43,596 nt of DNA from a phage: the sequence record PX871048.2. One strand, 5' to 3'. Positions within the stretch are counted from its first letter, which is position 1, and each line of letters starts with the position of its first letter. The notes under the pieces are model-generated. The model saw only the letters and a program-made list of their open reading frames with translations, was not told the DNA's origin and did not search any database. Made by a program: the position numbers and the translations under genes. This document shows positions 1-17,512 of this stretch, in pieces.

Positions 1-2337
1 ATGGCTGATGTAGCTAGTTTAGTTGTAAAGGTATCAGAGCAAGGCGCGAAAGCTACATCTGACCGCCTTGATAATCTCTCCAAGTCGGCAAAAGTAGCAG
101 GGGCAGCCGTAGCTGGCCTCGCTTTCATCGTCGCCGCTACCGCGTACAAGGCCGCACAGGAACTGGTAGACTCCCAACGGCAACTGGACAAGATGTCCGC
201 CAGCCTGAAAACGCTAACCGGAAGCACGCAGGGTGCAAGACAGGCGTTAAGCATCCTGCAAGACTTCGCGCGCGACACTCCGTATGGCCTTGAACAGGCG
301 GTGGAGGGATTCCGCAAACTTGTGGCGCTTGGTCTTACACCGTCAGAAGAAGCGTTGCGCTCCTACGGAAACACCGCCGCCGCTATGGGTAAAGACCTAA
401 ATCAGATGATTGAGGCCGTTGCGGACGCCAGTACATTTGAATTTGAGCGCCTTAAAGAATTCGGCATCAAGGCCAAGCAAAACAAAGACGATGTTGAATT
501 TACATTCCAGGGCACTACTACGGTGGTTAAGAAGAGCGCTGCCGACATCGAGCAATACCTGCTCAACATTGGTAACGTAAACTTCGCGGGGGCTATGGCG
601 GACCAGGCCAACACACTTAACGGGGCCATCGCCAGTGCCAGCGATTCCTGGTCGCAGTTAAAAATGACACTGGCTACCAGCCTTGATGTTGGTGCTCTTG
701 CGGGGCCTATCCGGTACATCGATGATTTAATCCAGGAACTTAACGCACAGGTAGCATCCGGTGAACTCGCCGCCGAGATGCGTATGTGGGGTGTCATCGC
801 GTCGGAAGTAGGAAGCGCGATAGAGATGTCGTTCGATGCGGCATTTGGTTTCGTAGGTGATGCGATAAATGGACTTAATGAACTTTGGGATTTTAGCAGT
901 AAAAGTATCACCGACAGCGGCGAACAAACGGCGACAACCATCGCGGAATCAGCTGCCGATGCGCTCGATTTCATCGCAGAAGAATTTACCGCGATGGAGC
1001 GCTTCTTTGAAGATATGGTTAAAGGGGCACAGGGCGCCGGGCGACTAGTGAAAGCAGCCTTCACACCGGGGGAATCTGTAGACGTCGCAAAAAACATTAA
1101 CTTCCAGCTGGGTATGGCACTGGATACTCAGCGTGATGTTGCGGACCTGACCCGTAAAAGTTTCCGCGAACAGGTGGAGGCCCAGCAAAATATTGTCGCG
1201 CTTAAACGCGCAGCATATGACATCGACAAAGAAGCCGCTAAGGAAGAAGGGCTTAGTAAATTTAAGGTAACTGGTACTGGTGGCGGGTCCGAAGATGATA
1301 ACGCTAGCGCAAAAGCCGCCAAGAAAGCTGCGGATGCGTTCGAGCGCCAGAAGAAAGCCGCTGAGGATTTCTACTACCAGTCGATTCATCTCAATGATGA
1401 CGTATTCCAGAAAATAGAAGCCAACCAGGAACAGCAGTTAACCAAGCTACAGGAGTTTTACGGCAATCAGCTTCTTAGCGACCAGCAATACGAAAACGCC
1501 AAAACTCAGATTATGCTGGAAGCGGATACTGCTCGCCAGGAGGAACTCGCTAAGCGAGAGAAAGAAAGGCAGGAAAAGAACCAGAAAGGCGAGGACTTCA
1601 TGGCTCAGATTATGGGCCAGAACGCCGCTGAGCTTGAGCTTCTGGAGATTCAGGAGCAACAAAAACTTGACGTTGCAGACAAATACCGCGAACAGAACCT
1701 TATTAACGAGGAGCAGTACCAAGCAGCGGTTAACGCGATAAATGACCAGTACGCATTGAAACGCGCCAACGCGACAGGTAATGCTTTCGGGATGATGGCG
1801 GATAATATTAAGTCGTCTCTCGGCGAAGCGTCTACGGCGTACAAAGCGTTTGCTATCGCCCAGGCCACCATAGCCACATACACATCCGCTATAGAGGCAT
1901 ATAAGTCCGCGTCCGCGATTCCTATTGTCGGCTGGGTGCTCGGCCCGGTGGCTGCTGCCGCAGCCGTAGCAGCGGGTCTGGCGAACATTGGTAAGATTCG
2001 CTCCGCACGTGAACAGGGGGGTAACCTAGCCGCCGGTCAGTTATCTACCATCGCAGAACGAAACAAACCAGAAGTTATCATGCCAGCAGGCGCATCGCGT
2101 GTTCGCACCGCACAGCAAATGAAAGAGATTATGGGCGAGAACGGCAACAAGTCAGGCGGTGACAGCGTTACAATCGTCAACAACACCACCGGACGTGTTG
2201 ATTCCGCCGTTACAGAGCGTGACGACGAAGGGCGGTTACGTGTTATCATCAGCGAAACAGTATCGGCGGCGTTACAAGACAGCAACAGTGCAATCTCTAA
2301 GTCACGCCGTGCTACACGAAACCAGCCGGGGTATTAA
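1..2337 (+). CDS. tail tape measure protein
   Basis: 778-aa ORF, long A/E/K/Q-rich coiled-coil-like stretches, internal hydrophobic segment GWVLGPVAAAAAVAAGLANIG, sits between putative chaperone ORFs (window end) and tail genes. Confidence 0.8.
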   Translation: MADVASLVVKVSEQGAKATSDRLDNLSKSAKVAGAAVAGLAFIVAATAYKAAQELVDSQRQLDKMSASLKTLTGSTQGARQALSILQDFARDTPYGLEQAVEGFRKLVALGLTPSEEALRSYGNTAAAMGKDLNQMIEAVADASTFEFERLKEFGIKAKQNKDDVEFTFQGTTTVVKKSAADIEQYLLNIGNVNFAGAMADQANTLNGAIASASDSWSQLKMTLATSLDVGALAGPIRYIDDLIQELNAQVASGELAAEMRMWGVIASEVGSAIEMSFDAAFGFVGDAINGLNELWDFSSKSITDSGEQTATTIAESAADALDFIAEEFTAMERFFEDMVKGAQGAGRLVKAAFTPGESVDVAKNINFQLGMALDTQRDVADLTRKSFREQVEAQQNIVALKRAAYDIDKEAAKEEGLSKFKVTGTGGGSEDDNASAKAAKKAADAFERQKKAAEDFYYQSIHLNDDVFQKIEANQEQQLTKLQEFYGNQLLSDQQYENAKTQIMLEADTARQEELAKREKERQEKNQKGEDFMAQIMGQNAAELELLEIQEQQKLDVADKYREQNLINEEQYQAAVNAINDQYALKRANATGNAFGMMADNIKSSLGEASTAYKAFAIAQATIATYTSAIEAYKSASAIPIVGWVLGPVAAAAAVAAGLANIGKIRSAREQGGNLAAGQLSTIAERNKPEVIMPAGASRVRTAQQMKEIMGENGNKSGGDSVTIVNNTTGRVDSAVTERDDEGRLRVIISETVSAALQDSNSAISKSRRATRNQPGY

Positions 2338-2340
2338 CCA

Positions 2341-3723
2341 ATGAGTGATTTGAGATTCCCTATGTCCCTTCGACCAATAGTGTCGAAGGGGTACTCCCAA
2401 ACGCGAGGGAGTAATATCTGGCGTACAGAAGTGCAAGGCGGCGTTCCGCGTCAGGGCCGAGACACATACTTCGAACCGGTGCCGATTAGCGTTACCCTGG
2501 TTGTGTCGTCACTAGGCCGCCAGGCTTTCTATAGCTTTCTGAATAACATAGACGGCGGGGCGTCTTCGTTCATCATGCCTCACGATACCGGTTTAGGTAT
2601 CGAAGACCACCAGGTTCTTATTACGTCTGATATTAGCGATAGCACTGACGATGGTAAGAACTGGGTGATTACGTTCACTGCTACGGCAGAGAGAACAGCG
2701 ATTCAGGAAGATACATGCTTTACGAAGAATCTGCCAGATTTGTTCGGTTGCTACGGCGATTATTTAGGTAGTTTTCTGAAAATATACGCGAACTATGAGA
2801 CTACGTTCCCGCGCATCTGGAGCGATGAAGGGCCCGCAGGATACCCGCCGATTAACCTTCTGGCGTCCGCCCTGGATAGCCGCATTGTGTACGACGGGCC
2901 GCAGGTTTATTACATCAACCGAAACGGCAATCTTGTGCAGTCCGCGGCTAATGAATGGCCTCTTACGTTTATTGATGGTGTCGCTGTCGGGCGTGTGCCG
3001 CCAGAAGGTGCCTCGCGCAATTTGTACATAAATTCGGAAACATGGGCAACTGGACTCCAAACATCTGTGCGGAATAATGCCGAAGTATCACCTCGCGGCG
3101 ATATAACTATGGCGGAAGTCACTGCGACAACTTCAAACTCTGAGCATTTCGCTAACGACAGGGCAATAGGGGTGCAGCAAGATGAGCTGTATTCATATTC
3201 AATATTTGTAAAAGCCGCTAGCGACCCACTAAACCTTTACCTAAGGGTGACAGCGGGCACCGTAGCGAGCACAATGTTCAACCCTGTTACTGGCGCATTT
3301 GTCGCGAACTTAGGAGTTAATTTTGTATCAAAAAATGCCGTTAGGGTTTCCGAGGACACATATAGGGTAACAATGGTCTTCCGGGCTGGCGCAACTAGAA
3401 ACTCTGTTATCCGTGTGCAGCTTGCATCTAGTGTGTCCCCAATATTCGCGGGTACTGGGGGAAATGGCATTTATGTATGGGGGGCGCAGTTAGAGAAATC
3501 GGCAAATACTACCAGTTACATACAGACATCAGCTATTGCAGGAGATAGAGTATCGGCATCGGCAAAAGTAGTAATGAGCGGCGCAACGAGCATTGATATT
3601 ACCTATTCCGATGGTTCTGTGGTAAACGTTCCGTCTGTTAACGGCTACGCCACCATTCCGCAGGCCGATTCTGCGTGGGGGAGTAAATATATCACTCGCA
3701 TTGATTTTAACGTGGACGGTTAA
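2341..3723 (+). CDS. tail structural protein (position suggests distal tail protein)
   Basis: 460-aa ORF starting 4 nt after tape measure stop; synteny only. Confidence 0.5.
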   Translation: MSDLRFPMSLRPIVSKGYSQTRGSNIWRTEVQGGVPRQGRDTYFEPVPISVTLVVSSLGRQAFYSFLNNIDGGASSFIMPHDTGLGIEDHQVLITSDISDSTDDGKNWVITFTATAERTAIQEDTCFTKNLPDLFGCYGDYLGSFLKIYANYETTFPRIWSDEGPAGYPPINLLASALDSRIVYDGPQVYYINRNGNLVQSAANEWPLTFIDGVAVGRVPPEGASRNLYINSETWATGLQTSVRNNAEVSPRGDITMAEVTATTSNSEHFANDRAIGVQQDELYSYSIFVKAASDPLNLYLRVTAGTVASTMFNPVTGAFVANLGVNFVSKNAVRVSEDTYRVTMVFRAGATRNSVIRVQLASSVSPIFAGTGGNGIYVWGAQLEKSANTTSYIQTSAIAGDRVSASAKVVMSGATSIDITYSDGSVVNVPSVNGYATIPQADSAWGSKYITRIDFNVDG

Positions 3724-3726
3724 CTT

Positions 3727-4242
3727 ATGAGCCAGGAATCAGTAGAAGCCGCCTATCGCCGCAAGCTGGCCTCAAATCCCGACGGCGAACTGGACTACAT
3801 TACTCTTGAAATAACGCACCCGCTTCTCTCGAAGCGGTGGTTGCTTGTGCGCGGGACGTCTGACCTGACGGCAACGTTAGAGACCGGAGAAGTAGTTACG
3901 TTTGAGGCCACACCAATGGAGGCTAAAGGGGCCGCCAACAATAACGACATGGACCAGCGGTCGTCGTTCGCATTACCTGATATTGGTAACCAGTTAGATG
4001 ATGAGATGGACAGGATACCACCGGATAATACGGTGTTGCCTAAGTTTATATTCCGCCGTTTCGTCAGCACAGACTTAACCTATCCAGCGGATGGGCCTGT
4101 TGTTTACGAATTGCAGTCGATAAACCAGGAAAAGGGGATATTCACAGCTGACGTCGGCGTCCCTATGTTGAACCAAAGAGCCACCGGTGAACTAATGACC
4201 CCTTCGGTAATCCCATTGTTGCGTGGTGTTTTGTCTACATGA
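3727..4242 (+). CDS. minor tail protein
   Basis: 171-aa ORF tightly packed in tail operon. Confidence 0.45.
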   Translation: MSQESVEAAYRRKLASNPDGELDYITLEITHPLLSKRWLLVRGTSDLTATLETGEVVTFEATPMEAKGAANNNDMDQRSSFALPDIGNQLDDEMDRIPPDNTVLPKFIFRRFVSTDLTYPADGPVVYELQSINQEKGIFTADVGVPMLNQRATGELMTPSVIPLLRGVLST

Positions 4243-4604
4243 ATATTAATTCTTATACTGGGTTGCCGTACGATTTTCGCCGTCGTAATTGCTGGCACCA
4301 CGTGCGTAACGTTCGTACCGACGCTGGTCTTTTTACGCCAGAGTTTAACGTCGCTTCACCAACACAGATTAACGACGCCTTCGAAGAAGGCCATAAAGAC
4401 ACTAAAGGCCTCGTACGCGTAGAAACTCCGCAAAACTTCGATGCCGTGCTGATGGCGACACGGCACAGAAACCGTGTAATCTGGCACGCTGGCGTATATT
4501 ATGATGGTATGGTCAGTCATTGCGAGTTAGCAAGTCGCCAGGTACGGTTAGACCGACTGGAAGACTTGCGCGAAACTTATGCGGAGATAGAATTTTGGCG
4601 CTGA
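4239..4604 (+). CDS. tail assembly protein, possibly NlpC/P60-like (Cys/His motif NCWHH)
   Basis: 121-aa ORF overlapping neighbours by 4 nt; Cys and His residues spaced like a small peptidase domain; weak. Confidence 0.35.
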   Translation: MNINSYTGLPYDFRRRNCWHHVRNVRTDAGLFTPEFNVASPTQINDAFEEGHKDTKGLVRVETPQNFDAVLMATRHRNRVIWHAGVYYDGMVSHCELASRQVRLDRLEDLRETYAEIEFWR

Positions 4605-6184
4605 TATTACATTACACCCGTAACGAAGACGGTACTTTTGACCGCAAACGGTATAACGTACCTCCGATGGAATACGTCGTTGCTAACATCCCAGACGGGG
4701 TACCTGTGCGTATTTACCGCGGCGAGATTGGTGATGATACAGACGTAACGGAAAACTTCGAAGCGCTGAAAGAAGATGACGTTTTCCATATCATCGAGGG
4801 CGCTGGCGGCGGTGGTGGTTTTCTTGGTAAACTCCTGGACCCTTTGGGTGTGCTTAAATTTGTTACCAAGTTGATTTCTCCGTCGCAGAAAACGCCTAAA
4901 ACGAGTTTAGCGAACCAGCAGGCGGAGTCTCCAAACAACAGCCTGACGGACCGAAACAATAAACCGCGTCCGTATGAACGGTCGTATGATATTTGCGGCA
5001 GGGTCCAGACTATCCCTAATGACCTCATGACTACGTATAAGGTCTTCAATGACGCAGGTGTGGTAGTCGAATACGGCTACTATGACGCCGGTCGTGGGTA
5101 TCTTGATATTAAAGCCGAAGACATCACCGACGGCGATACTAAAGTGCAGGAGATTACAGGAACTTCTGTAGCGGTATACGCCCCATTTACATCCCCTAAC
5201 AATACAAATACGCCTCAGCTTCTGGTGGGGGACCCTATCAATCAGAATCTGTACATAACTATTGCCTCGAACGAGGTAGATGGGGCCGTTCTTAAAGCGC
5301 AGAACGATATCAGGGTTAATCCCAGTGATACCGGTGAGATTTCATTGCAGGGGGCAACTGGTGTCGTCCGCGATAACACTGGCGACTCTGCTTTCTCTGA
5401 GATTTTATCGGTTGGGGACATAGCTGTTTTTAACCTTATTCTGGTAAAAGACGTGGCTAACGTCAGTGGTAGCTATACTGTTACATACGTAGATGACTTT
5501 GAGGTAAGAGTAGCCGCCGGAGGGGTGTTGTCAGAATGGCAAAAATTGCCATCGGGGTTCACTCCTTTAACGCAAGGTACCGAAGCATGGATTTCACCGT
5601 CGAACACTTACGATAAGTCGTTAACGGACTGGACTACTTTAAACCGCCTGGAAGTTGAACGCGTAGTAGCCAACATCGCGGCCGCGAATGGTATGTATAA
5701 AGACAACGGCAGTAAATTGCGCACGTCGGTAACTGTCGAGCTTCAGTATCAACTCCTTGATGAAACTGGCGTGCCGTACGGGGATGTTTACTCAAAACAG
5801 GCCGTTATATCAGGTCGTTCTGCGGATTACACAGGTGTTACTATTTACGCCGACTTGCCCATGCGGTCGAAAGTTAGGGTACGGGCCCGCCGTGTTACTA
5901 ACCTTGACCTTAGTTTCGAGGGGACCGTGGTAGACGAGGTTTCCTACATCAACCTTTATGGGCAGGTACGCGACACTACACCGCATTACGGCAACCGTAC
6001 TACCGTGCACTCCGCACGTAAGCGGTACGCGACACTACACCGCATTACGGCAACCGTACTACCGTGCACTCCGCACGTAAGCAGACGCCGCGGGCCGCGG
6101 AGATTAAGCAGCCGCAACTACGTATGGTTGCCACAGAGATGGTGTACAAATACCTCGGCAACGGCGTATTCGACACGGTTATGA
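4520..6184 (+). CDS. large tail-tip / host-specificity protein, N-terminal part; frame broken by 59-bp tandem duplication
   Basis: ORF reads in frame through repeat copy 1 (..TTVHSARK) then enters out-of-frame sequence and stops at 6184; true start probably TTG about 4595 or ATG 4667 rather than 4520. Confidence 0.55.
   Translation: MRVSKSPGTVRPTGRLARNLCGDRILALILHYTRNEDGTFDRKRYNVPPMEYVVANIPDGVPVRIYRGEIGDDTDVTENFEALKEDDVFHIIEGAGGGGGFLGKLLDPLGVLKFVTKLISPSQKTPKTSLANQQAESPNNSLTDRNNKPRPYERSYDICGRVQTIPNDLMTTYKVFNDAGVVVEYGYYDAGRGYLDIKAEDITDGDTKVQEITGTSVAVYAPFTSPNNTNTPQLLVGDPINQNLYITIASNEVDGAVLKAQNDIRVNPSDTGEISLQGATGVVRDNTGDSAFSEILSVGDIAVFNLILVKDVANVSGSYTVTYVDDFEVRVAAGGVLSEWQKLPSGFTPLTQGTEAWISPSNTYDKSLTDWTTLNRLEVERVVANIAAANGMYKDNGSKLRTSVTVELQYQLLDETGVPYGDVYSKQAVISGRSADYTGVTIYADLPMRSKVRVRARRVTNLDLSFEGTVVDEVSYINLYGQVRDTTPHYGNRTTVHSARKRYATLHRITATVLPCTPHVSRRRGPRRLSSRNYVWLPQRWCTNTSATAYSTRL
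5965..6082 (+). repeat. perfect 59-bp tandem direct duplication (5965-6023 and 6024-6082)
   Basis: two adjacent identical 59-nt copies; flanking bases differ; 59 is not a multiple of 3. Confidence 0.9.
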
Positions 6185-7206
6185 CACCGAATACTCAGGC
6201 GATTCAGTCCTTAATCCGTCTTGCCCGCGACCCGGTAGTAGGTAATCTCAACCTAACCACATCCAATATGGACAAGTTGTTAGCGACTCAGAACGAGATA
6301 GAAAACTATTTCGGTAACGCAGAGGCTGGTCAATTCTGCTACACTTTTGACGATTATAAAATGACTATGCAGGACATAATCAGCACAATAGCCGACGCTA
6401 TTTTCTGCACACCATATCGTAAAGGGCAAGACATATTACTGGATTTCGAGCGCCCTCGTATGGGGCCGGAGATGGTATTCACCCACCGCAGCAAAACTAC
6501 CGCGGCGGAGAAGTGGACGCGCACGTTTAACGACGCACAGGTATACGATAGTCTCAAGTTTTCATACATCGACCCAGATACTAACGTCAAAGAGACTATT
6601 AGCATCCCGGCCGAAGGAGGTGTTAATACCGAAACGTACGACTCTAAGGGTATCCGTAACTATCGACAGGCGTACTGGGCAGCTTATCGACGTTACCAGA
6701 AAAACTTGTTGAAGAAAGTCACGGTGTCCTTTACGGCGACAGAAGAAGGAGTTTTTGTGCTGCCTGGTCGCGCAATAAGCGTCGTTAAAGGTTCGCGCGT
6801 AGCGCCTCAAGACGGCTATGTTGTTGCCGTTAATGGTCTTACTCTGACTTTATCACAGCCGGTTACTTTTACCCCCGGAGACGACCACTCATTGATTCTT
6901 AAGAAGCGTGACGGTGGTGTTCAAAGTGTTGCCGTTGTGCCCGGAAGCCACGACCGTGAAGTGGTTATGCTCTCTGCGCCTCAGGAGGCGATATACACAG
7001 GGAATAGCGCACTAAAAACTGAGTTTTCATTCGGCAACGAAGCAAGGCATAATGCTCAGATGATTCTTGTTTCTACAGTTGACCCTGGAGACGACAGAAC
7101 GGTTAAGATTACTGGGATTAACTACGAAGCAGATTTCTATAAATACGACGGCGTCGCACCTTTCGGTAGCGGTTTCTCCGGCGGATTCAGCAACGGTTTT
7201 AGTTAA
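6064..7206 (+). CDS. large tail-tip / host-specificity protein, C-terminal part (starts inside repeat copy 2)
   Basis: 380-aa ORF; its frame equals the frame of the upstream ORF if one repeat copy is deleted (..HSARKQTPRAAEIKQ..). Confidence 0.55.
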   Translation: MHSARKQTPRAAEIKQPQLRMVATEMVYKYLGNGVFDTVMTPNTQAIQSLIRLARDPVVGNLNLTTSNMDKLLATQNEIENYFGNAEAGQFCYTFDDYKMTMQDIISTIADAIFCTPYRKGQDILLDFERPRMGPEMVFTHRSKTTAAEKWTRTFNDAQVYDSLKFSYIDPDTNVKETISIPAEGGVNTETYDSKGIRNYRQAYWAAYRRYQKNLLKKVTVSFTATEEGVFVLPGRAISVVKGSRVAPQDGYVVAVNGLTLTLSQPVTFTPGDDHSLILKKRDGGVQSVAVVPGSHDREVVMLSAPQEAIYTGNSALKTEFSFGNEARHNAQMILVSTVDPGDDRTVKITGINYEADFYKYDGVAPFGSGFSGGFSNGFS

Positions 7207-7218
7207 AGAGGACTCTAT

Positions 7219-9033
7219 ATGTCAAGCGGATGCGGTGACGTTTTAAGCCTGGCGGATTTACAAACCGCCAAGAAACACCAGATTTTCGAAGCCGAGGTTA
7301 TCACCGGTAAATCCGGCGGCGTTGCTACGGGTGCCGATATTGATTACGCAACCGATGCTGTTACAGGGCAAACCCAGAAAACACTCCCCGCCGTGTTGCG
7401 TGATGCCGTATTTACTCCGGTTGCGTGGGATTTCTCTACAGGCGGTACGTTAACAGTTAATGACCGCAACAAAGTGGTTTATGACCCGGTGAGCAAAACG
7501 TGGTACTCGTATGCAGGTACGTTGCCGGTTGTTGTCCCGGCATCGTTTAACCCGGTTGGTAATGCTAACTGGAAGCCACAGACCGACCCTGACTTACGAC
7601 AGGATTTAGCGGCTACTACCGCGCAGAAAGGAGCAAGCCTTGTCGGATATAAATCACCAGTAGCAGGCTCCGTAGCTACGACCTTGCAGTCAAAAGAATC
7701 GGAATACGTCTCTGTGTATGACTTCGGGGCGAAAGCTGAACCCGGATTTGATAATGCCACGGCATTTGCATTAGTAAAAACTGCCGCGGAAGCAGGTATT
7801 ACAATTTTGTTCCCAGCTGGGACTTATGAAACATCATCCGAGCTTACATTCACGTCAGCAGTTAAACTTGTGGGTATGCCTGGTACACGTATTAAGATAA
7901 CTGCACCAGGAAAAGCTCATGTCATGTGCATTGACCTTCGCGGCCCAGTTGGTGATTACTGGGGTTACGGGGTGCACCTGGAAAACTTCATTCTTGACGG
8001 TAATGGTAATGCGGTAGATGGATTATCTCTGCGCGGTGTTATCTCATCACGCTTTGTTAATATACGTGCTACTAACGTTACTCGTGCCGGTTTACATCGT
8101 TGGTGGACTCAATTATGTACCTTTGAGAATTTCCAGTGCTCATCTAACGTTGAAGCATTTACTACTACACCTGTTTACGGAATCCTCACTGACTGTGAGT
8201 TTGATACCGGAAATGACCGTGGAAGCTCTGCAGATACGATTACTAACCCAGAAATAGAGCATGTATCCGGTACAGGCATATGTGGGGTGTTTGAGTCAAA
8301 CTCCGTATACATAAACGGTACATCTGAAGGTAATAATATCGGAATAGCTTTCGGTAATACTGATAGCCGAAACCAGTCTGTTAGTAATACTGTAATAGGT
8401 ATGGACCTTGAGGTTAACACGGCTACAGATATTCTACTTTATTCGAACACCTATGCTAACGACTTCATTGGTTTGAAGGCAGGATATAACTCTCCTAGCA
8501 TCCAGGTACAAGGTTCTTTTGGGAATAAGTGGCTTGGCGGTTCATGTGCTGGTATTGATTTTTATAGCGAGTCCCATGATAACAGAGTGTATGGTGTTTC
8601 ACTGTTAGGCGAGGGGGCTGTAATAACAGATGCGGGGAGCCGCAACAAATACACTGATTGTTTTAATATTTCTACAGCAGCGGTCTCTGTATCAACAAAC
8701 CCTTACCCAAACCGCGGTAATAATGTTCTTGCTGCGAATGCCACCGCAACGATTGACCCTTACCGAGATAATCTTACTGTTGTTACCGCAACAAGTAGCC
8801 CTATTAATATTGTGTCCTCAACTACACCACTGGACGGCGCAAGAATGGATTTGGTAATCCATAATACAACTGGGTCGGATACCTTAGTTATCAACTGGTC
8901 TTCTGCGTTCAGGGTTGCTGGTTTTACAGCCCCCGCTGCCGGGAGACATCGTGGTATTTCCCTGGTCTATGATGCCAACTATGGCTACTGGTGTGTTGTT
9001 GGGATGGCAACGGCTGACGCAGTTAGCGTATAA
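7219..9033 (+). CDS. tailspike / tail fiber with pectate-lyase-like beta-helix (putative depolymerase)
   Basis: 604 aa; RBS AAAGAGG upstream; N-terminal anchor-like region then SVYDFGAKAEPGFDNATAF..LFPAGTYE typical of right-handed beta-helix glycanases; from memory. Confidence 0.7.
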   Translation: MSSGCGDVLSLADLQTAKKHQIFEAEVITGKSGGVATGADIDYATDAVTGQTQKTLPAVLRDAVFTPVAWDFSTGGTLTVNDRNKVVYDPVSKTWYSYAGTLPVVVPASFNPVGNANWKPQTDPDLRQDLAATTAQKGASLVGYKSPVAGSVATTLQSKESEYVSVYDFGAKAEPGFDNATAFALVKTAAEAGITILFPAGTYETSSELTFTSAVKLVGMPGTRIKITAPGKAHVMCIDLRGPVGDYWGYGVHLENFILDGNGNAVDGLSLRGVISSRFVNIRATNVTRAGLHRWWTQLCTFENFQCSSNVEAFTTTPVYGILTDCEFDTGNDRGSSADTITNPEIEHVSGTGICGVFESNSVYINGTSEGNNIGIAFGNTDSRNQSVSNTVIGMDLEVNTATDILLYSNTYANDFIGLKAGYNSPSIQVQGSFGNKWLGGSCAGIDFYSESHDNRVYGVSLLGEGAVITDAGSRNKYTDCFNISTAAVSVSTNPYPNRGNNVLAANATATIDPYRDNLTVVTATSSPINIVSSTTPLDGARMDLVIHNTTGSDTLVINWSSAFRVAGFTAPAAGRHRGISLVYDANYGYWCVVGMATADAVSV

Positions 9034-9037
9034 AACT

Positions 9038-9064
9038 AAGGCCCCGTCTGGGGCCTTTTTTTTT
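9038..9064 (+). terminator. rho-independent terminator (GGCCCC-GTCT-GGGGCC plus T9)
   Basis: GC hairpin followed by T-run directly after tailspike stop. Confidence 0.75.
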
Positions 9065-9202
9065 CTACTCTTCTGATAACTTCTCCAGTACAAACGCCAG
9101 TTGCGCGTTGGCGGCGTCTCTTTGCTGCCGTAATCGTAGGACCTCTTCTTCAAGTTCCTTGATACGTTTTTGCAATGCTGGAATCGGGGCTATGATGTTC
9201 AT
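9065..9202 (-). CDS. small coiled-coil protein (45 aa)
   Basis: ATG overlaps stop of upstream minus gene as ATGA; below track size cutoff. Confidence 0.3.
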   Translation of the reverse strand: MNIIAPIPALQKRIKELEEEVLRLRQQRDAANAQLAFVLEKLSEE

Positions 9203-9384
9203 TTCTTACCTTCGCTTTTCTTGAAACTGCGCTTTATATCCGGCGGAGTGTAGCATCGTGAATTTTCGTACTTACCGTCCGAGCTTACCAAAACAAAGCT
9301 GTTGCCGTCTTTTGATATGTACTCGATGGTGAAAGTATTGAATGAATGTACGCTGTATATTTCGTCTCCAACATTAAGTTTCAT
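9199..9384 (-). CDS. hypothetical protein
   Basis: 61-aa ORF, 4-nt overlap with helicase gene. Confidence 0.4.
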   Translation of the reverse strand: MKLNVGDEIYSVHSFNTFTIEYISKDGNSFVLVSSDGKYENSRCYTPPDIKRSFKKSEGKK

Positions 9385-10811
9385 TTCTTACTCCTACGTT
9401 TCATGTAATTAAGCAGCTCTTCCTGTACAGATTTCTTCTCATCTGTACGCGCGGCAACAACCTCGTCCAGCGTGTCTTTAGCAACGATGTGATAGAGAAA
9501 CACCGGGCGCTCGTGGCCTGCCTGTTTCTGGCGGACCGGGCCTATACGCTCGACAACCTGCAAATAGTGCTCAAGGTTCCAGCCTTGCGAGATGAACGCC
9601 AGATGATGTCCGCCATCCTGTAAATTCAAACCATGCCCGGCTGACGCAGGGTGTACGCATAAGATTTCTATTTCGCCGCGGTTCCACGCTTCCATCTGCT
9701 TATTACCCTTAGCACCTTTGGCAAACGCCTGTGCTTGCGGGAATCGTTTAAGGATGCGCTCCAGTTCGTGCTTGAACTGATAGGCTACCAGTAGCGGCGC
9801 GCCCTGTAACTCCTCAACAATTGACTCCAGCGCATCCAGTTTCGTGTCGTGCACTTTCTCCCAGTCTTTTGTCGCTTCTCCGTCTGGTCCCGACACATAT
9901 ACGGCACCGGATGCAATCTGCAAACACTTCGACGTCTTCGCTGCCGCGTTAGCTGCCTCAACTTCTCCGCTCTCCAGTTCCGCAAATAACTTCTCCTCCA
10001 TATCTATGTACGCCTGACGCGCTTTCTTCGGCAGGTCGATTTCAACAGGTACGATAACCGGCGCTTCGCATCCGAACCACTCAGCGGCGTCAATCGTGAG
10101 ACTGATGTCCTTCATCTTCTGGTGGATTTCAGTATCCGCACCCGGGCGGGCGTGGTACTCACGTGCCATAGCCGATTTGCCTTTTTGCACCGAGTTAAAC
10201 CAGCGGTCGGTGAATGCCGTGTACGATGAACCAAGTCGCTCGCCTGCGTCGATAAACCAGTTCTGCCCCCACAGGTCTTTGAGGCCGTTTGGCGACGGCG
10301 TACCTGTCAGGTTAATGAACCGCTTAACCTTGCCGAACGCCACTTTGCTGAGTGCCTTCGCGCGCTTGCTGCCGCCAGAACGGCTACGGAAAGATTTAAG
10401 TTTCGTGCTTTCATCGGCAACGATAACCGTAAAAGGCCAGTCGTCTTTGCCGTAGTAGTCAATCAGCCACTCGATAACTTCGTAGTTCGTACACACTACG
10501 TTAGCATCCGACTCCAGCGCCGCGATGCGGCGCTTCTCTGAACCAGTCGCATCGACGACACGCAGACAAGGGAAGTTCCAACGTGCCTGTTCCGCGGGCC
10601 ACGTACCTGACGCAACACGTAAAGGGGCAAGAATTAACACTCGGTCGTCGTCATTAAGTTGCCCATTACGGAACAGTCGATTGAGAACCCACAACGTTGA
10701 CCCCGACTTGCCGCTGCCCATCGAAGCCCAAATATTACAGCGAGGGTGCCGCAGCATGAACGAAGTCATGAGCTTTTGGTACTCTCGACGGATAAATTTA
10801 GACATAATCAA
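9381..10811 (-). CDS. SF2 (SNF2/DEAD-like) DNA helicase
   Basis: Walker A SMGSGKSGST, Walker B VIVADEST, 476 aa. Confidence 0.75.
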   Translation of the reverse strand: MIMSKFIRREYQKLMTSFMLRHPRCNIWASMGSGKSGSTLWVLNRLFRNGQLNDDDRVLILAPLRVASGTWPAEQARWNFPCLRVVDATGSEKRRIAALESDANVVCTNYEVIEWLIDYYGKDDWPFTVIVADESTKLKSFRSRSGGSKRAKALSKVAFGKVKRFINLTGTPSPNGLKDLWGQNWFIDAGERLGSSYTAFTDRWFNSVQKGKSAMAREYHARPGADTEIHQKMKDISLTIDAAEWFGCEAPVIVPVEIDLPKKARQAYIDMEEKLFAELESGEVEAANAAAKTSKCLQIASGAVYVSGPDGEATKDWEKVHDTKLDALESIVEELQGAPLLVAYQFKHELERILKRFPQAQAFAKGAKGNKQMEAWNRGEIEILCVHPASAGHGLNLQDGGHHLAFISQGWNLEHYLQVVERIGPVRQKQAGHERPVFLYHIVAKDTLDEVVAARTDEKKSVQEELLNYMKRRSKK

Positions 10812-11002
10812 CCCTTAACGTAGAGCACCAGCTCTTTACGCCCGAACGCCGTAACGTTACCCGTTACATCTTCGATAACCAGTTTACCGTTCGACTCGAC
10901 GAACACCGTATCAACGGCAACCGGACGTCGGGTCTTAACGTTGAAAATCATGTCGCCCGGTACGATGTCACGTGCGGGTTTGCGGTCATATTCGTGTTTC
11001 AT
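10808..11002 (-). CDS. hypothetical protein
   Basis: 64-aa ORF overlapping helicase start by 4 nt; RBS AAGGA. Confidence 0.45.
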   Translation of the reverse strand: MKHEYDRKPARDIVPGDMIFNVKTRRPVAVDTVFVESNGKLVIEDVTGNVTAFGRKELVLYVKG

Positions 11003-11041
11003 TTCTCAATTCCTTATAGTTAAGGCCCCGAAGGGCCTGTA

Positions 11042-11296
11042 TTAGTTAGATAATTCGCCTTGAACTTGCTTAATAAGTTCTCTGGCCGTTGTGAAGTCTA
11101 CGGACAGCCCTTTAGCGACGTCTTCCGCAAGCACCTTGTGGCCAACTGACCCGAAGCCCAGGATACGGTTTACTTCCGAAACCTTCATAGACCATGAGTA
11201 ATTAACTGACGCCCCTGTGTATTTACCGATACGAACAGATGAATCGATTGAACCAATAATCATGGTGTTTACTGACAGTTGAAGTTCGATAGCCAT
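11042..11296 (-). CDS. hypothetical protein
   Basis: 84-aa ORF directly downstream of minus promoter at about 11331-11359. Confidence 0.45.
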   Translation of the reverse strand: MAIELQLSVNTMIIGSIDSSVRIGKYTGASVNYSWSMKVSEVNRILGFGSVGHKVLAEDVAKGLSVDFTTARELIKQVQGELSN

Positions 11297-11297
11297 T

Positions 11298-11612
11298 TTA
11301 TAATTCCTTATATTGTTGAGGTATGTGCTTACTATAATAGTCTGCTATTAGGGTGTCAATCTGTTTTATCGAACCAACGACAAAAACATTCGCGCCACGT
11401 TTACGCATCCGCTCGTGCTCGCGTAACTGGTGTGGGTCTGGCTTCGTGCTTTCATCTTTCTTAACCTCAACGAACCAGATGATGCCGCCGGGGAGGATTA
11501 CCAACAGGTCGGGCGCTCCGTTTCGGCCCTCATACACTATCTTACGAACGAGGCCCCCCAGGGCCTCGAATCGGTCTTTCGCGTATTTCTGTACGCGGCC
11601 CTCTTTAGTCAT
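11298..11612 (-). CDS. VRR-NUC domain nuclease
   Basis: PD-(D/E)XK-like GAPDLLVILPGG..VEVKK motif; start taken at ATG 11612 (MTKEG), coupled to upstream micro-ORF via ATGA. Confidence 0.6.
   Translation of the reverse strand: MTKEGRVQKYAKDRFEALGGLVRKIVYEGRNGAPDLLVILPGGIIWFVEVKKDESTKPDPHQLREHERMRKRGANVFVVGSIKQIDTLIADYYSKHIPQQYKEL
11331..11359 (-). promoter_or_regulatory. sigma70-type promoter, class II (TTGACA-17-TATAGT) with AATAG-N4-CTATT palindrome in spacer
   Basis: minus-strand reading TTGACA CCCTAATAGCAGACTAT TATAGT. Confidence 0.55.
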
Positions 11613-11761
11613 GGGCGTAGAACCCAAGTAAGGAAAGCCCCTCCTAGAACGGCAACACCGACAAACTTAAAGAACAGGCCATAACAGAACATCGTGGCTA
11701 TTCCCGCCCCGAGTAACAGTGCAAGCATGGTTACTATTGCCCAAAATACAAACATTGTCAT
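11609..11761 (-). CDS. small membrane protein (50 aa, two hydrophobic segments)
   Basis: ATGA overlaps at both ends; hydrophobic; below track cutoff. Confidence 0.4.
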   Translation of the reverse strand: MTMFVFWAIVTMLALLLGAGIATMFCYGLFFKFVGVAVLGGAFLTWVLRP

Positions 11762-11847
11762 AATACACACCCCTCACGTTTCGTGTGCTCAATCCCGCAG
11801 CGCGGACAGATTCGACAGTCTTCTTCATAGAACCAGTAGATTTTCAT
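11758..11847 (-). CDS. 29-aa peptide with C-x2-C-x2-C motif
   Basis: ATGA overlap with both neighbours; MKIYWFYEEDCRICPRCG.. Confidence 0.3.
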   Translation of the reverse strand: MKIYWFYEEDCRICPRCGIEHTKREGCVL

Positions 11848-11975
11848 TCCAGCACCCACAGATAAATTGCGATGAACATACCTAATACGGCTACAATCAT
11901 GCCGTATTGGCCCTCGTGACAGTAGACACCGGCGGCAAATCCCGCCAGTACTGTGATAATCAGTTTACTTAGCAT
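11844..11975 (-). CDS. small membrane protein (43 aa)
   Basis: start overlaps last codons of polymerase gene; hydrophobic. Confidence 0.35.
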   Translation of the reverse strand: MLSKLIITVLAGFAAGVYCHEGQYGMIVAVLGMFIAIYLWVLE

Positions 11976-14238
11976 AACGGTACACCTCTCCCCCAGCCCA
12001 TGTTAACGGGAACCCTTCGGCCCACTCAGGTAATGAGCATAGCAGGTCACCCATCTCTTTAACCGTGTACTCTGGCGTGTCTGGCGTTTCGGCAACACAT
12101 TCGTCATGTACGTGGAGTACAATTGGGTAGCCCGCCGCCTCGACCGTCAGGAGTCCGTTAACCAGTAAATCACGGCACAACGCCTGGATGATGTTTTCAC
12201 ACAATTTTCCGCCGTGTGTGTACAAAGTTGTCCACTGGCGGGTGGTCTGATTTTCGCCCTGGTATTTAATGCGAACGTTAGTTGTTACACGCCCGTCCTC
12301 GTCGGTCTCTTTAGTGACGCTTAAGCCTATGCCAGGGTAGGACATGATGCGCCCCGACGGCAGCTCCACGCACAACCACCAACCTGGCACAAAGTTACCT
12401 TGTCTGTCTTTCTCCTTAGTACGCCAGATGCGAATAGCTCTGTCGCCGTTGGGGCGGACTCTGGCCCCCGCCCAAAACTCTCGTCCCGGATTTCTAATTG
12501 CAGCAATCACCGAATCCTTAAGGTCGTTCCAGAATTTCACTGTTTCCGGATGGGCCTCACGCCACATGCGCTTGATAGCATCGCAAGTGCGCCAGACTTC
12601 TTTAGGCAGCACATAAGAGGCCCGTTCATCCTTTTTACCGGGTTTTGGGGGCCGCTTAGCCTCCTGAATCCGCGCCCATTCATAGCCTCGGGCAGTGGCG
12701 GCCCATATATGGTCAGGGAATGTTCCCCGCATTGTCTCCGTCATTTTAAAGAGGTCCAGCCCGTAAGTTTTAGCCATAGTCATGAAGGCCCCCACGCCCC
12801 CCTCGTAGCCGAGGCCGAGCTCGCAACATTTCCCGACCTGTCGCAGGTCTTTACGGGTGGCTTTCAGTTCTATGGGGTCCATACCAAACATCTTGCCCGC
12901 AGTGGCGCAATAAATATCAATCCCCGCGCGGAACGTCTCAAGCGCGGATGTCTCCCCCGCGGTCCAGGCCAACCCGCGCCCTTCTACGTTTGAGTAGTCG
13001 GCAACGAGCAACTTATTACCCTTTTCAGGGATGATGCAACTGCGAACAGTCGAGGCTGTCAGCTTGGATACGTCGAAACGACGGTGCGCCCGACCCTTTA
13101 GCAGCAGATTGATGCCGAACGATAGGGGGTTGAGACGACGGTTCCAGTCTTCGTCGGACTCCCACGGCTGGCGCACAAGTTTCTTTTCCTCGTTAGTCGG
13201 GTCGTCGTGGTAGTACCCGCGCGACAGGTTCTGCGGTTGGAACCCTTTACCCGCAAATCGTAAAGTGCGCTTTGCCCCACCGTACTGGATGCAACCGCGG
13301 CGGCGGCCGTCTTTGGACCGTCCTAGCAGGAGCGGTTTGTATTTTGTCGACGCCGTGGAGGCCGCGCCGAGGCGCATCTCAATGATTGTGCGCGCATCGT
13401 CAGGTAAGTCGTCGTCCTCTAGCAAACCTTCGAGCGTTGCTTTCTGTGCATTATAGATATTGTAGGCCGGTGCCAGCTCCCGAAGGATTGGCAGGAAGTC
13501 TTTACCCGTTAGCTTCCCGCCAAATTTAGCCCTGGCCTCGTTTTTTAGCTCTTGCTTGTGGCGTTCAACTGCTGCTACCGCCGCCTCAGCAAGAGCCGCA
13601 TCAACAAAGAAGCCTCGGTCGTTGATTAACTGGTCAAGTTCAAGTACACGGTCCTCGAAATCGGAGTTACCCCAACGTGGCAGCTTATGGAAGACTTCAC
13701 GCATCGCTGTGATGTCGCTCACGGCATACTTGATGAACAGGGCCCACTCGTCAGGGTGAGTTTCTGCGGTGTAGCGGCGGATTTTGTAGTTCTTCGGCGT
13801 CGGTTTAGAGAAACGCTTAATCAGCGCCTTGCCGCGTTTATCTTTTGCATTGTCGGCGGATACGCCCAGCACTTCGCACAATGCGTCAAGTGACCCCGGC
13901 AGCGCGTGACGAAACGCCCAAATCATCGTATCAATGGTGTTGCTTACCGGAATATCAAAGTCCCAGCAGTGCTTCATGACGAGCCTGTCGAACATTGAGC
14001 CGTTGTGCCACACCATCTTAATACGACTGTTTGGCTTAACCAGGCGGCGCAAGGCGCGATGCAAATCCCCCGGCATGTCGCTGCCGTCAGTGCAGTCCCA
14101 TACCTGAACAGGCTCGTCATCAAAAGCATAGGTGCAGATGAGCACTTCGGTAGTCGGGTGTTCGGCGTAAGCATAGGAGCCGACTTTCTTCAAATCGGCT
14201 TCGGAGAAGGTTTCAAAGTCTAAGAACAGATAACTCAT
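11965..14238 (-). CDS. family A DNA polymerase with 3-prime-5-prime exonuclease domain
   Basis: Exo I motif LDFETFS; polymerase motif A LLVADYSNVEGR, motif B RQVGKCCELGLGYEGG, motif C HVHDE; 757 aa. Confidence 0.9.
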   Translation of the reverse strand: MSYLFLDFETFSEADLKKVGSYAYAEHPTTEVLICTYAFDDEPVQVWDCTDGSDMPGDLHRALRRLVKPNSRIKMVWHNGSMFDRLVMKHCWDFDIPVSNTIDTMIWAFRHALPGSLDALCEVLGVSADNAKDKRGKALIKRFSKPTPKNYKIRRYTAETHPDEWALFIKYAVSDITAMREVFHKLPRWGNSDFEDRVLELDQLINDRGFFVDAALAEAAVAAVERHKQELKNEARAKFGGKLTGKDFLPILRELAPAYNIYNAQKATLEGLLEDDDLPDDARTIIEMRLGAASTASTKYKPLLLGRSKDGRRRGCIQYGGAKRTLRFAGKGFQPQNLSRGYYHDDPTNEEKKLVRQPWESDEDWNRRLNPLSFGINLLLKGRAHRRFDVSKLTASTVRSCIIPEKGNKLLVADYSNVEGRGLAWTAGETSALETFRAGIDIYCATAGKMFGMDPIELKATRKDLRQVGKCCELGLGYEGGVGAFMTMAKTYGLDLFKMTETMRGTFPDHIWAATARGYEWARIQEAKRPPKPGKKDERASYVLPKEVWRTCDAIKRMWREAHPETVKFWNDLKDSVIAAIRNPGREFWAGARVRPNGDRAIRIWRTKEKDRQGNFVPGWWLCVELPSGRIMSYPGIGLSVTKETDEDGRVTTNVRIKYQGENQTTRQWTTLYTHGGKLCENIIQALCRDLLVNGLLTVEAAGYPIVLHVHDECVAETPDTPEYTVKEMGDLLCSLPEWAEGFPLTWAGGEVYRYAK

Positions 14239-14253
14239 TATTTTGACCCTTAG

Positions 14254-14276
14254 TAAAAAGGCCCAATAAAGGGCCT
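14254..14276 (-). terminator. hairpin plus T-tract (partial terminator/attenuator between SSB-like gene and polymerase)
   Basis: AGGCCC-AATAAA-GGGCCT followed on minus strand by TTTTT. Confidence 0.5.
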
Positions 14277-14296
14277 TAATTAAACAGATTCAGATA

Positions 14297-14929
14297 TTAA
14301 CCACGGCGACGACGTTCGCGGCGCGGTGCTTCATCTTCTTCGTCGTCTTCCAGGTCGTCGGTGCTCGCTACTACACTGGAGCCGCCGAAGCGTTTACCTT
14401 CGCCCATATACTTGATGCCGAGGATGGTAGCGCACAGGTTTTTCCAATCTTTGTGCCACCATAATTCTACAGATACGTTTGCGATACATCCGCTATATAC
14501 CTGCTCGCCTTCTATTTCTTTCCCGTCGATGTTGAAATCAGGCTCGGTTTGTTTTTCACCTTTAGCCGATGTCATAATCACCGGTTGGCGGTTGTTTGTA
14601 GCGCGGAAATACAGACCTTCTTCAAAATCCTCAATCGGATTATCTCGCATTGCCAGGTCACGTACACAGCACTTGTCCGCGTGGTGGTCTACGCCGTAGT
14701 TGGCCTTCATCCATTTTTCAGCCGCAGCGGTCCCGATCGCCTCTGTTACAACTTCCAGTGCGGTGTCGTAAAGCGCGTCGATTTGAGGGTGGTCAGGCTG
14801 CATAAGAACCGTAACCTGGTATTTGCCTTTAATCAGTTTACCGGTTTTCTTGTCCTCAGAGTCGGCAGCACGTTCAAATACGTTAACCCATGCAGTGTTT
14901 ACTCTACGCAGATTCAGTTTAATACCCAT
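14297..14929 (-). CDS. ssDNA-binding protein-like (DUF2815-type) with acidic C-terminal tail
   Basis: 210 aa, C-terminus DDLEDDEEDEAP; usual neighbour of Cas4-like exonuclease and PolA in phage replication modules. Confidence 0.55.
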   Translation of the reverse strand: MGIKLNLRRVNTAWVNVFERAADSEDKKTGKLIKGKYQVTVLMQPDHPQIDALYDTALEVVTEAIGTAAAEKWMKANYGVDHHADKCCVRDLAMRDNPIEDFEEGLYFRATNNRQPVIMTSAKGEKQTEPDFNIDGKEIEGEQVYSGCIANVSVELWWHKDWKNLCATILGIKYMGEGKRFGGSSVVASTDDLEDDEEDEAPRRERRRRG

Positions 14930-14987
14930 CGTGATTTCTCGCTTTTAAGTTTCGTTTACTCCGGGAACTGCCCGGCCAGTGATTAGA

Positions 14988-15016
14988 AATATAATAGCTA
15001 ACTATTCAGGTGTCAA
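14988..15016 (-). promoter_or_regulatory. sigma70-type promoter, class II (TTGACA-17-TATATT) with AATAG-N4-CTATT palindrome
   Basis: minus-strand reading TTGACA CCTGAATAGTTAGCTAT TATATT; leader contains hairpin CCGGGAACTGCCCGG. Confidence 0.55.
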
Positions 15017-15279
15017 CCCTTCCAGCCAGTTATTTTCTCAACTATCAGTACGTATTCGAAAGGCCACTCCAAATTCTGTACCCATTTAATTTCCTTTGTC
15101 GAGTCCAGTTGCTCGGGGTCTACCGTTTCATACTTAATCGCAACGTAGACCGTGAGTGGGAGAAGGATAATTAGAAGCGGCACTAACATTGCCCAGTAAC
15201 AAACAAATGCCACAAACCCACCAAAAACCCTGAACGTTTTACGAATCATTCCAAATCCTCCTCTGTTACCTGATTCCAC
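15013..15279 (-). CDS. small membrane protein
   Basis: 88 aa with two hydrophobic helices (FGGFVAFVCYWAMLVPLLIILLPLTVYVAI). Confidence 0.45.
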   Translation of the reverse strand: MESGNRGGFGMIRKTFRVFGGFVAFVCYWAMLVPLLIILLPLTVYVAIKYETVDPEQLDSTKEIKWVQNLEWPFEYVLIVEKITGWKG

Positions 15280-16496
15280 TCAGGCCGTTTGTCGTCTGCC
15301 GTTGTGACACATGGCGCGCCTGGCTTACGGGTAATAAACGGCTCAAGCGCGGCCATCTCATCCGCCGAAAGAACTTTTGCTGCCTCCGTAGGGGACATCA
15401 ATACCTCTTTTTTGAGAATGTCGCCGTGTGACACTTCAATCGCATCGGCATCTTTCCACGCACGATTACCTGGGCGGCCTTCAACGAGTTTGTACCCCGG
15501 CACTTTCTTACCAGAATACAAAGCGGCGGCCATAGCTTTCTCAACCTTGTCGATGTGCTGGCGCAACAACGGCAACTTCTCATACTCAGCTACGAGTTGC
15601 TCAGGCGTAAGTTCCAGTGCAAAGTCGTCCTCCAGTTCTTCCGCCAGCACCGCGTTAACCGTCTTTGTACGCGCGGCGCACTGTTCAGAGAACCGGCACC
15701 ACTGGCAACCATCGACCGACGGCTTGAAGTCCGACGCTTTAAGGTTCTTCTTGCCGCGGAAATAGGCATCAAGAGCTAACAGCGCGCGTTTGCGTGCGAA
15801 CTTAGCGAACAGTTCCAGACCTTCAACCGAGATGTCCCACTCCGACGCACCCCCAGCGTACGGCTGGAAGATGACCAGACGAACAACTGTGATGTTATAT
15901 CGTCTCTTGAGGCGGCGATAAACACCGAGAGCGTATAGCATAAGCTGTTTGTTTTCTTTCGCTTCGACACGATGCCGTCCGGTTTTCAGGTCACCAATAA
16001 TGAGCATGTGCGCGTCGGTGTTCGCCAGTTCCTGAACAGCAACAAGGTCGGCGGTTCCGAACGTCTCAACGCCTTCATACCCAGGATGCAACACCTCAGT
16101 GAGATTTACGCGCATTTCTAGCTTGGCGTAAGTCGCTACATCGATAATCGCTTTGCAGTAGTCGGTGTGCTTGCGCACCTGCTCAATCATGTCGGCCGTA
16201 ATCAGTACCGCGCCTTTCATAGGGCTGATTAGAGCCTTAATCTGGCCTTTACCCTCGTCCAGCACGTAAGCACCTACTTCACGCTCTAACGGCAACGCAG
16301 TGCCTTTGATGTACTGGTTTAGATGGACCTCTGCTATAGTGTGGCACGCGGTTCCCGTAACGGCGGATTTACCAGATGTATTAGGAATATCTTTTTCACA
16401 GGCCAGTGATGCGGCACAACTCAGCCACTTTTTAGCCCCAGACGGCGACAGCAGGGCGTGCACATCGTTATTGCCGCCGCGTTCCTTTAAAATCAT
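15246..16496 (-). CDS. PD-(D/E)XK exonuclease, Cas4/RecB-like (DUF2800-type) with C-terminal Cys cluster
   Basis: IIGDLKTG..VEAKENKQLMLYALGVY nuclease motifs; C-terminal CQWCRFSEQC; start set at ATG 16496 (MILKERGG) with GGAG RBS. Confidence 0.7.
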   Translation of the reverse strand: MILKERGGNNDVHALLSPSGAKKWLSCAASLACEKDIPNTSGKSAVTGTACHTIAEVHLNQYIKGTALPLEREVGAYVLDEGKGQIKALISPMKGAVLITADMIEQVRKHTDYCKAIIDVATYAKLEMRVNLTEVLHPGYEGVETFGTADLVAVQELANTDAHMLIIGDLKTGRHRVEAKENKQLMLYALGVYRRLKRRYNITVVRLVIFQPYAGGASEWDISVEGLELFAKFARKRALLALDAYFRGKKNLKASDFKPSVDGCQWCRFSEQCAARTKTVNAVLAEELEDDFALELTPEQLVAEYEKLPLLRQHIDKVEKAMAAALYSGKKVPGYKLVEGRPGNRAWKDADAIEVSHGDILKKEVLMSPTEAAKVLSADEMAALEPFITRKPGAPCVTTADDKRPEWNQVTEEDLE

Positions 16497-16765
16497 GCTC
16501 TGTTCTCCCACTGGTCGATTAAATGTCGTGTCTTGTGGCCGCAATGTAAGGCCCATCCATACATCGACTCGAAGACATAAAAGTCAGGTTTGGCGAATGT
16601 CGTGCGCTTAATCTGCGACACGTGACGGCCTATATCTTCAGGGCGCGGTACTTTGCCTAAGTACGCCATCTCTTCCATCTGGTGTGCACCGGACGGCGCA
16701 CGCAACAGCCATAGCGCCTCTGTGTTATCCCGCCTGTCCACGGCGCGGTAGAGTTGGTAAATCAT
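16493..16765 (-). CDS. hypothetical protein
   Basis: 90-aa ORF, ATGA-coupled to exonuclease gene. Confidence 0.45.
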   Translation of the reverse strand: MIYQLYRAVDRRDNTEALWLLRAPSGAHQMEEMAYLGKVPRPEDIGRHVSQIKRTTFAKPDFYVFESMYGWALHCGHKTRHLIDQWENRA

Positions 16766-17004
16766 TCGGCGTCCCTCGCTTCCAGCATTGCATCAGCCAT
16801 GATGTACGCCTTTTGCGCTACTTGCGCGGTGTTCCCTGCAGCTACAGGGTGAACTGCATCCGCTGGGTAACTAGCAAGCCACCCTTGAAGGGCTTTAGCC
16901 GCGAAATAATCGCGTAATGTCATGCCATCTTCCGTAGTCCAATCTGAGTTGAAGCCCACGTTACCCAACATAGGGAAAGCCTGTCCGCCTGTATTTTTAC
17001 GCAT
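16762..17004 (-). CDS. hypothetical protein
   Basis: 80-aa ORF, RBS GAGGG. Confidence 0.45.
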   Translation of the reverse strand: MRKNTGGQAFPMLGNVGFNSDWTTEDGMTLRDYFAAKALQGWLASYPADAVHPVAAGNTAQVAQKAYIMADAMLEARDAE

Positions 17005-17047
17005 AATTCCGACCCTCAGTTAAAGCGGCCCGAAGGCCGCGGGATAG

Positions 17048-17512
17048 TTATTCTTCTTCGAAATACTTGTTCTTGATTGCCGTCAGGCGTTCCAGGTATT
17101 CGGCCAGGTCTTCGTCTTTAATCGCGGCAATCTTCATCTTCTTACCGGTGAACTCTTCCAGCAGTTCGTCAGAATCATCACACGCGGCGTCGCTAGGGCC
17201 TTCGTTGATCGCATCGTCGATAGCCTGAATCTGGTCGCGCAGAGACTGGTAATCGACTTCTTCTTTCTCTTCTTCCGGCTCTGGCGTTGGTTCCTCTACT
17301 TTAGCTTTACGCGGCTTGCGTTTCGGCTTCTCTTCTTCTTCTGCCGGTTTAGTGTCAACGATGTCTTCACCTTCGACCGGGATTTCTTTTGTTGCAACAG
17401 TAGGCGTGATTGTTGCAGTTTCAGCAACGACAACTTGTTTCGCACTGTTCGCGGCAATCAGTTCATGCGCAACTACGAAACGTTCCAGTAATACTAAGAA
17501 TTTCTCTAACAT
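17048..17512 (-). CDS. acidic protein, first gene of replication operon
   Basis: 154 aa, E/D-rich with basic KPKRKPRKAK patch; RBS GAGAGGAG; downstream of promoter at about 17544-17572. Confidence 0.5.
   Translation of the reverse strand: MLEKFLVLLERFVVAHELIAANSAKQVVVAETATITPTVATKEIPVEGEDIVDTKPAEEEEKPKRKPRKAKVEEPTPEPEEEKEEVDYQSLRDQIQAIDDAINEGPSDAACDDSDELLEEFTGKKMKIAAIKDEDLAEYLERLTAIKNKYFEEE

Follow-up and report, generated by a model that had tools for sequence, protein, structure and literature searches.

Contingency loci carry many copies of units of 1-10 nt, and the copy number varies within populations. Spontaneous tandem duplications arise in phage genomes, some phages possess short exact direct terminal repeats (DTRs), and an ATGA overlap of stop and start codons is the classic arrangement for termination-reinitiation.

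Repeats can also be produced by assembly. Contigs from de Bruijn graphs have end overlaps that equal maxK (MEGAHIT, metaSPAdes) or maxK-1 (IDBA_UD), which are normally trimmed with tools such as APC.pl (PMC10914622), and circular phage contigs routinely carry such overlaps and need trimming (bioRxiv 10.64898/2026.07.08.737226). Internal repeats of ~79 bp in short-read-only assemblies of przondoviruses were noticed through their misfit with read depth or annotation and proved to be artefacts by Sanger sequencing (PMC10438801). For the gene affected here, a described counterpart is gp14 of phage Sf11, an 828-aa 'baseplate hub 2 protein' that was found in virions by mass spectrometry; each virion contains three copies, and the model traces residues 81-827 as one chain (9OCC; PMC12724387).

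The window, by which we mean the whole stretch of 43,596 nt that was analysed, is a complete, circularised genome of a Kagunavirus (Guernseyvirinae; a Jersey-like E. coli siphophage). Its closest record over the repeat region is 96.8% identical, and elsewhere in the genome the nearest records show ~88-91% identity. Tandem Repeats Finder (TRF) reports a tandem pair of 59-nt copies in which 5965-6023 equals 6024-6082 (100% identity, 2.0 copies, score 236). The unit, GGTACGCGACACTACACCGCATTACGGCAACCGTACTACCGTGCACTCCGCACGTAAGC, is free of internal repeats of at least 6 nt, and the junction between the copies at 6023/6024 reads CACTCCGCACGTAAGC|GGTACGCGACACTACA. The features of the locus are as follows.

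5965..6023, plus strand: copy 1 of the 59-nt unit, read in the native frame as codons 457-476 of the hub gene
6024..6082, plus strand: copy 2 of the 59-nt unit, missing from all relatives; proposed to be an untrimmed contig-end overlap
4595..6184, plus strand: ORF1, 529 aa, 58.4 kDa, with 476 N-terminal residues of hub 2 and 53 out-of-frame residues
6064..7206, plus strand: ORF2, residues 472-850 of the same hub 2 protein, with its GTG inside copy 2
6181..6184, plus strand: ATGA, made up of an ATG in the ORF2 frame (6181-6183) and the ORF1 stop TGA (6182-6184), which overlap

The period-59 identity stops at the exact borders of the pair, with 0 extra bases on either side, and the junction is therefore devoid of microhomology. 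Over the whole window the expectation of such a repeat by chance is ~1e-31, and because the second-longest exact direct repeat in the 43,596 nt measures only 21 nt, a chance origin is excluded. TRF also lists a row of period 31 at 5981-6075 (61% matches, 24% indels), which is a by-product of the 59-nt duplication.

Since 59 = 3x19+2, the second copy shifts the reading frame, and as written the hub gene breaks at codon 476/477. Deletion of one copy gives a single open frame of exactly 850 aa (93.6 kDa), a length like that in the relatives. Across the site the one-copy protein reads ...TTVHSARKQTPRAAEIK..., and the two-copy reading would include the out-of-frame residues RYATLHRITATVLPCTPHVSR.... 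A first-pass annotation, made from the letters of the window, had described two identical 59-nt copies with differing flanks, a shift of frame with ORF2 taking up the frame of copy 1, and one protein of about 850 aa once a copy is removed; our analysis of the borders and open reading frames agrees on all three. Its ORF at 4520..6184 keeps its stop, but the start is moved: homology to the CDS of relatives places it at TTG 4595, with a GGAG 8-11 nt upstream. The ATGA overlap is probably a chance product of the frameshift and would matter only if the duplication were real. On the plus strand, neither a promoter nor a terminator is newly made by the duplication.

The interrupted gene is predicted from homology to encode a gpJ-like 'baseplate hub 2' tail-tip protein of the kind represented by lambda gpJ and Sf11 gp14. 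The intact protein matches phrog_469 ('tail protein') at E = 1e-248 over residues 287-838, a match that spans the break, and phrog_31 ('central tail fiber J') at E = 2e-22. In phmmer comparisons it matches Sf11 gp14 (9occ_E) at E = 5e-22 and residues 311-533 of lambda J (8IYK) at E = 3e-5, and its N-terminal residues 30-198 and C-terminal residues 525-831 both align to the single chain 9occ_E. The earlier claim that a large tail-tip gene is interrupted thus stands on homology to phrog_469, Sf11 gp14 and lambda gpJ. Pfam gave only a sub-threshold match to TT_ORF2a, which we treated as noise. An AlphaFold2 model of the intact protein was unusable (mean pLDDT 30, pTM 0.25, from an alignment of 29 sequences at 85-99% identity).

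The surrounding genes form a tail-tip module at 1..9033, which opens with the tape-measure protein (TMP) and the distal tail protein (DTP).

1-2337, plus strand: TMP
2341-3723, plus strand: DTP
3727-4242, plus strand: hub 1 (DUF1833)
4239-4604, plus strand: gpK-like gene
4595-7206, plus strand: hub 2 (split)
7219-9033, plus strand: tailspike

Hub 2 follows TMP, DTP, hub 1 and the gpK-like gene and precedes the tailspike, and the gene order of this stretch mirrors Sf11 gp18-gp13 (PMC12724387). The likeness to the siphophage hubs lambda gpJ and Sf11 gp14 is therefore one of sequence homology together with synteny (TMP, DTP, hub 1, hub 2, tailspike). Because it is homologous to Sf11 gp14 and stands in the same gene order, the hub 2 protein is the structural core of the tail tip, and a separate tailspike gene lies downstream. 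In contrast to lambda gpJ, the gene of the window is without the C-terminal fibre and receptor-binding region (850 aa versus 1132 aa), and unlike both Sf11 gp14 and lambda gpJ it is written as two out-of-frame ORFs. The family is made up of single polypeptides of ~830-850 aa; the window departs from this as written and agrees with it once one 59-nt copy is deleted.

Relatives carry a single copy of the unit. In the five full-coverage top DNA matches, 2942 nt of the record are aligned with 3001 nt of the query, a difference of 59, and a DNA alignment has a 59-column gap in GZMU_E2010, Ro145c2YLVW and Schulenburg. When one copy is removed, all 2553 nt of the reconstruction align gap-free with GZMU_E2010, Henuyfy11N and a Logan contig. 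An IMG/VR contig that is 92-96% identical to the window has a single, exact 59-mer whose flanks are the same as those of the one-copy reconstruction, and the duplication must therefore be younger than the last substitution in this segment. That contig is the one match to the exact unit in IMG/VR, and metagenome_contigs gave none; the copy-copy junction, searched as an exact or a degenerate pattern, is absent from IMG/VR. A second assembly of this phage was sought through exact look-ups of 10 window proteins and, in a contig index, of the tailspike; neither route returned one.

The proteins tell the same story. A search at E <= 1e-30 gave 821 homologues, and each of the 120 listed is one chain, 826-851 aa long; the closest public homologues among the matches listed differ from the intact protein at 6/850 residues. 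All 43 homologues that were retrieved read ...TTVHSARKQTPRAAEIKQ... uninterrupted. Among 1.84 billion cluster representatives, searched exhaustively, there were 1223 homologues, and in the best 150 of these (28-59% identity) residues 457-516 are crossed inside one protein. Of the first 80 distant representatives, 75 have a best matched stretch that covers residues 450-520, the other five being long multi-stretch proteins or a fragment that ends at 382. The first-pass annotation had pointed to homologues split at this boundary as the finding that would speak against it; what came back were single chains, both in the 120 listed and in the best 150 of 1223, with no natural split near residue 477 in the latter. 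A search among 5.8 billion proteins gave no match to the 53 out-of-frame residues that end ORF1.

The two ends of the record also carry a redundancy.

1..8, plus strand: ATGGCTGA, record start, at the tape-measure ATG
43589..43596, plus strand: ATGGCTGA, record end, at the stop of the tail-assembly-chaperone ORF 43237-43596

The first 8 nt of the record are thus the same as its last 8 nt. In phage Schulenburg the chaperone and tape-measure genes overlap there, and the 8-mer occurs once at the junction. Because the record starts with an ATG and ends with a stop, has an 8-nt terminal redundancy, and the 8-mer is single in relatives, we conclude that gene boundaries were used to re-cut the circular genome after assembly, with the redundancy ignored and 8 redundant bases left behind. 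The re-cutting could perhaps be the work of whoever prepared the window rather than of the assembler's user; the mechanism would be unchanged, and the 8-nt redundancy is for that reason indirect evidence.

Could the 59-mer instead be a genuine physical DTR of the virion DNA, kept at both ends of the sequence and then joined? Such a repeat, joined end to end, would give the same sequence. It would, however, interrupt a conserved structural gene in mid-coding sequence, where the relatives read straight through, and this position inside a conserved ORF is what makes a DTR implausible. Related records, moreover, open at many positions and several are flagged as circular, as permuted genomes predict. 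A search of the literature on DTRs, packaging or termini in Kagunavirus gave nothing usable. We give this explanation next to no credence.

The second 59-nt copy is most probably an untrimmed assembly end-overlap that was internalised when the circular genome was re-cut. Under this proposal, a circularly closed contig from a short-read de Bruijn graph would have had the same 59 nt at both ends as its k-mer overlap. The genome would next have been re-cut to begin at the tape-measure ATG, and the old contig ends would have been joined untrimmed, so that a terminal overlap became an internal perfect tandem duplication. The junction would by chance have fallen inside the gpJ-like baseplate hub 2 gene and shifted its frame. 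We infer that the original contig ended at 6023|6024, and likewise which assembler and k value may lie behind a 59-nt overlap. The true genome would be ~43,529 nt long, with one intact 850-aa hub gene.

A hypothetical contig made of window[6024..43588]+window[1..6023] is 43,588 nt long, and its first 59 nt equal its last 59 nt; extension to 60 breaks the identity. Such a contig, rotated untrimmed, therefore gives exactly the sequence seen. The value 59 is contained in the MEGAHIT k-list of 21,29,39,59,79,... (PMC10914622). It would be MEGAHIT's maxK only with reads of <79 nt; an IDBA_UD maxK of 60 would likewise give a 59-nt overlap. Exact copies without microhomology, a re-cut record and colinearity that returns when one copy is removed all fit a contig-end overlap. 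Among the 45 Henuyfy11N CDS with a tblastn match on the window, the hub gene is the sole one split over two frames. The assembly is otherwise clean, and its lesion sits in a core structural gene; a viable phage should not carry such a frameshift of a core virion protein as its majority genotype.

The same observations bear on a genuine, very recent 59-bp tandem duplication, arising by replication slippage or illegitimate recombination and truncating or inactivating the hub gene. The genotype would then be a defective or minority variant caught as the consensus, or one kept by complementation in a mixed lysate. Both copies are the lineage's own allele of the unit and are identical, as a young event predicts; a very recent real duplication would, like an assembly overlap, be 100% identical and absent from relatives, and nothing in the sequence by itself contradicts it. 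Were it real, it would stand as a rare case of a natural frameshift in an essential tail-hub gene. As the majority genotype it should be lethal or strongly deleterious, because the frame is shifted in a core virion protein that every homologue examined has as a single chain. The junction, moreover, has zero microhomology, the length of 59 coincides with an assembler end-overlap value, the record was re-cut after assembly, and the search with the out-of-frame tail found a comparable frameshift in no other assembly. We therefore regard a genuine duplication as unlikely, though it is the alternative with the best claim after an untrimmed overlap.

That the repeat is both real and functional is highly improbable. 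As a reversible ON/OFF hub switch, two copies would be the OFF state and homologous deletion between the 59-nt repeats would lead to ON; perfect repeats of this length would presumably revert to one copy at appreciable frequency. As a viable split gene, ribosomes ending at TGA 6184 would re-initiate at ATG 6181, and both pieces would assemble. The ATGA overlap does stand in the right frame, but re-initiation at ATG 6181 could yield a 341-aa fragment without residues 477-509, and no Shine-Dalgarno sequence was found before GTG 6064, ATG 6124 or ATG 6139, the ORF2 starts. Rescue by a programmed -1 ribosomal frameshift was rejected as well, a slippery heptamer X XXY YYZ being absent from 5965-6184 in any frame.

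Variation in copy number among relatives, by which a phase-variable locus would be recognised, was not seen: every relative examined has one copy. The unmatched out-of-frame tail, the missing degenerate junction and the lack of a natural split among the best 150 distant homologues speak against a switch and a split gene alike. With contingency loci and slipped-strand phase variation the locus shares a change in repeat copy number that toggles the frame, but here there are two copies of a 59-nt unit of unique sequence, unlike a short-repeat contingency tract, and no variation in any relative. A switch on host recognition, as the first-pass annotation had entertained, is unsupported because the protein is a structural hub without the lambda-type C-terminal receptor-binding part, and the phage has a separate tailspike. 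A two-copy toggle, in which the pieces were possibly expressed through the ATGA at 6181-6184 and recombination restored the intact gene, strikes us as equally far-fetched. Among the three explanations that the annotation had set side by side, the assembly artefact is thus the favoured one, a slipped-strand mutation is less so and the reversible switch finds no support.

An untrimmed end-overlap also has the closest precedents. Like the k-mer end overlaps of circular de Bruijn contigs, the second copy is an exact duplicate, of a length typical of assembler k values, with no biological junction signature, and its removal restores a normal genome, as in those systems (PMC10914622; bioRxiv 10.64898/2026.07.08.737226). 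It differs in being internal rather than terminal, which needs the extra step of rotation or re-cutting without trimming. The przondovirus case is alike in its short exact repeats within otherwise good phage assemblies; those phages, however, belong to a T7-like group with real DTRs nearby, the repeats measure 79 nt rather than 59, and they were verified experimentally, whereas ours is deduced.

A nearer parallel is Escherichia phage vB_EcoS-Ro145c2YLVW (MH051334), whose J/hub gene is annotated as two CDS owing to a 114-nt insert at 1969-2082. Within the insert, 51 nt imperfectly repeat the 51 nt that come next (49/51), and another ~63 nt resemble an adapter: 40/56 positions agree with the Illumina universal adapter in reverse complement, a score of 59.5 where 500 shuffles reached at most 31.5. 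This is probably a contig-end artefact, degraded adapter included, that passed into the record. Both phages belong to the same genus and have the same gene split by a duplicated stretch at an apparent former contig end, but the Ro145c2YLVW insert is 114 nt long and imperfect, and it falls near codon 92 rather than 477. A second deposited Kagunavirus genome thus has this type of error in the same gene.

The 59-nt duplication is most likely no real biological feature, and its value lies in data quality and in a correction of the record to ~43,529 nt. As written, the record yields two spurious 'tail protein' ORFs and a genome that is 59 nt (plus 8 nt) too long; uncorrected, it wrongly suggests a tail gene that is truncated or can be switched. 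A flagging rule for phage databases follows from this: an exact tandem duplicate of assembler-k length, without microhomology, in a rotated circular genome.

Some minor observations were made along the way. The tailspike gene is a mosaic: it is 96.7% identical to GZMU_E2010 over its first 1682 nt, the extent of the GZMU_E2010 locus, and its match to Henuyfy11N and the Logan contig is limited to the first ~390 nt (86%). This pattern fits a conserved N-terminal adaptor whose downstream receptor-binding part has been exchanged. The N-terminal ~55% of TMP (window 1-1340) has no tblastn match to the Henuyfy11N TMP, and the C-terminal 331 residues are 90% identical; this marks a further mosaic boundary within the tail module. 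Two sites, 14340-14360 and 19110-19130, share the exact 21-nt repeat TCGTCGTCTTCCAGGTCGTCG and lie within the minus-strand ORFs 14297-14929 and 17870-20137. Another exact 21-nt repeat, CTATTATGTTGGGGTGTGCAA, is found at 32950-32970 and 42687-42707, and TGAATAGTA precedes both copies; these sites are outside plus-strand ORFs of at least 90 aa, each stands upstream of a plus-strand gene block, and they are promoter-like.
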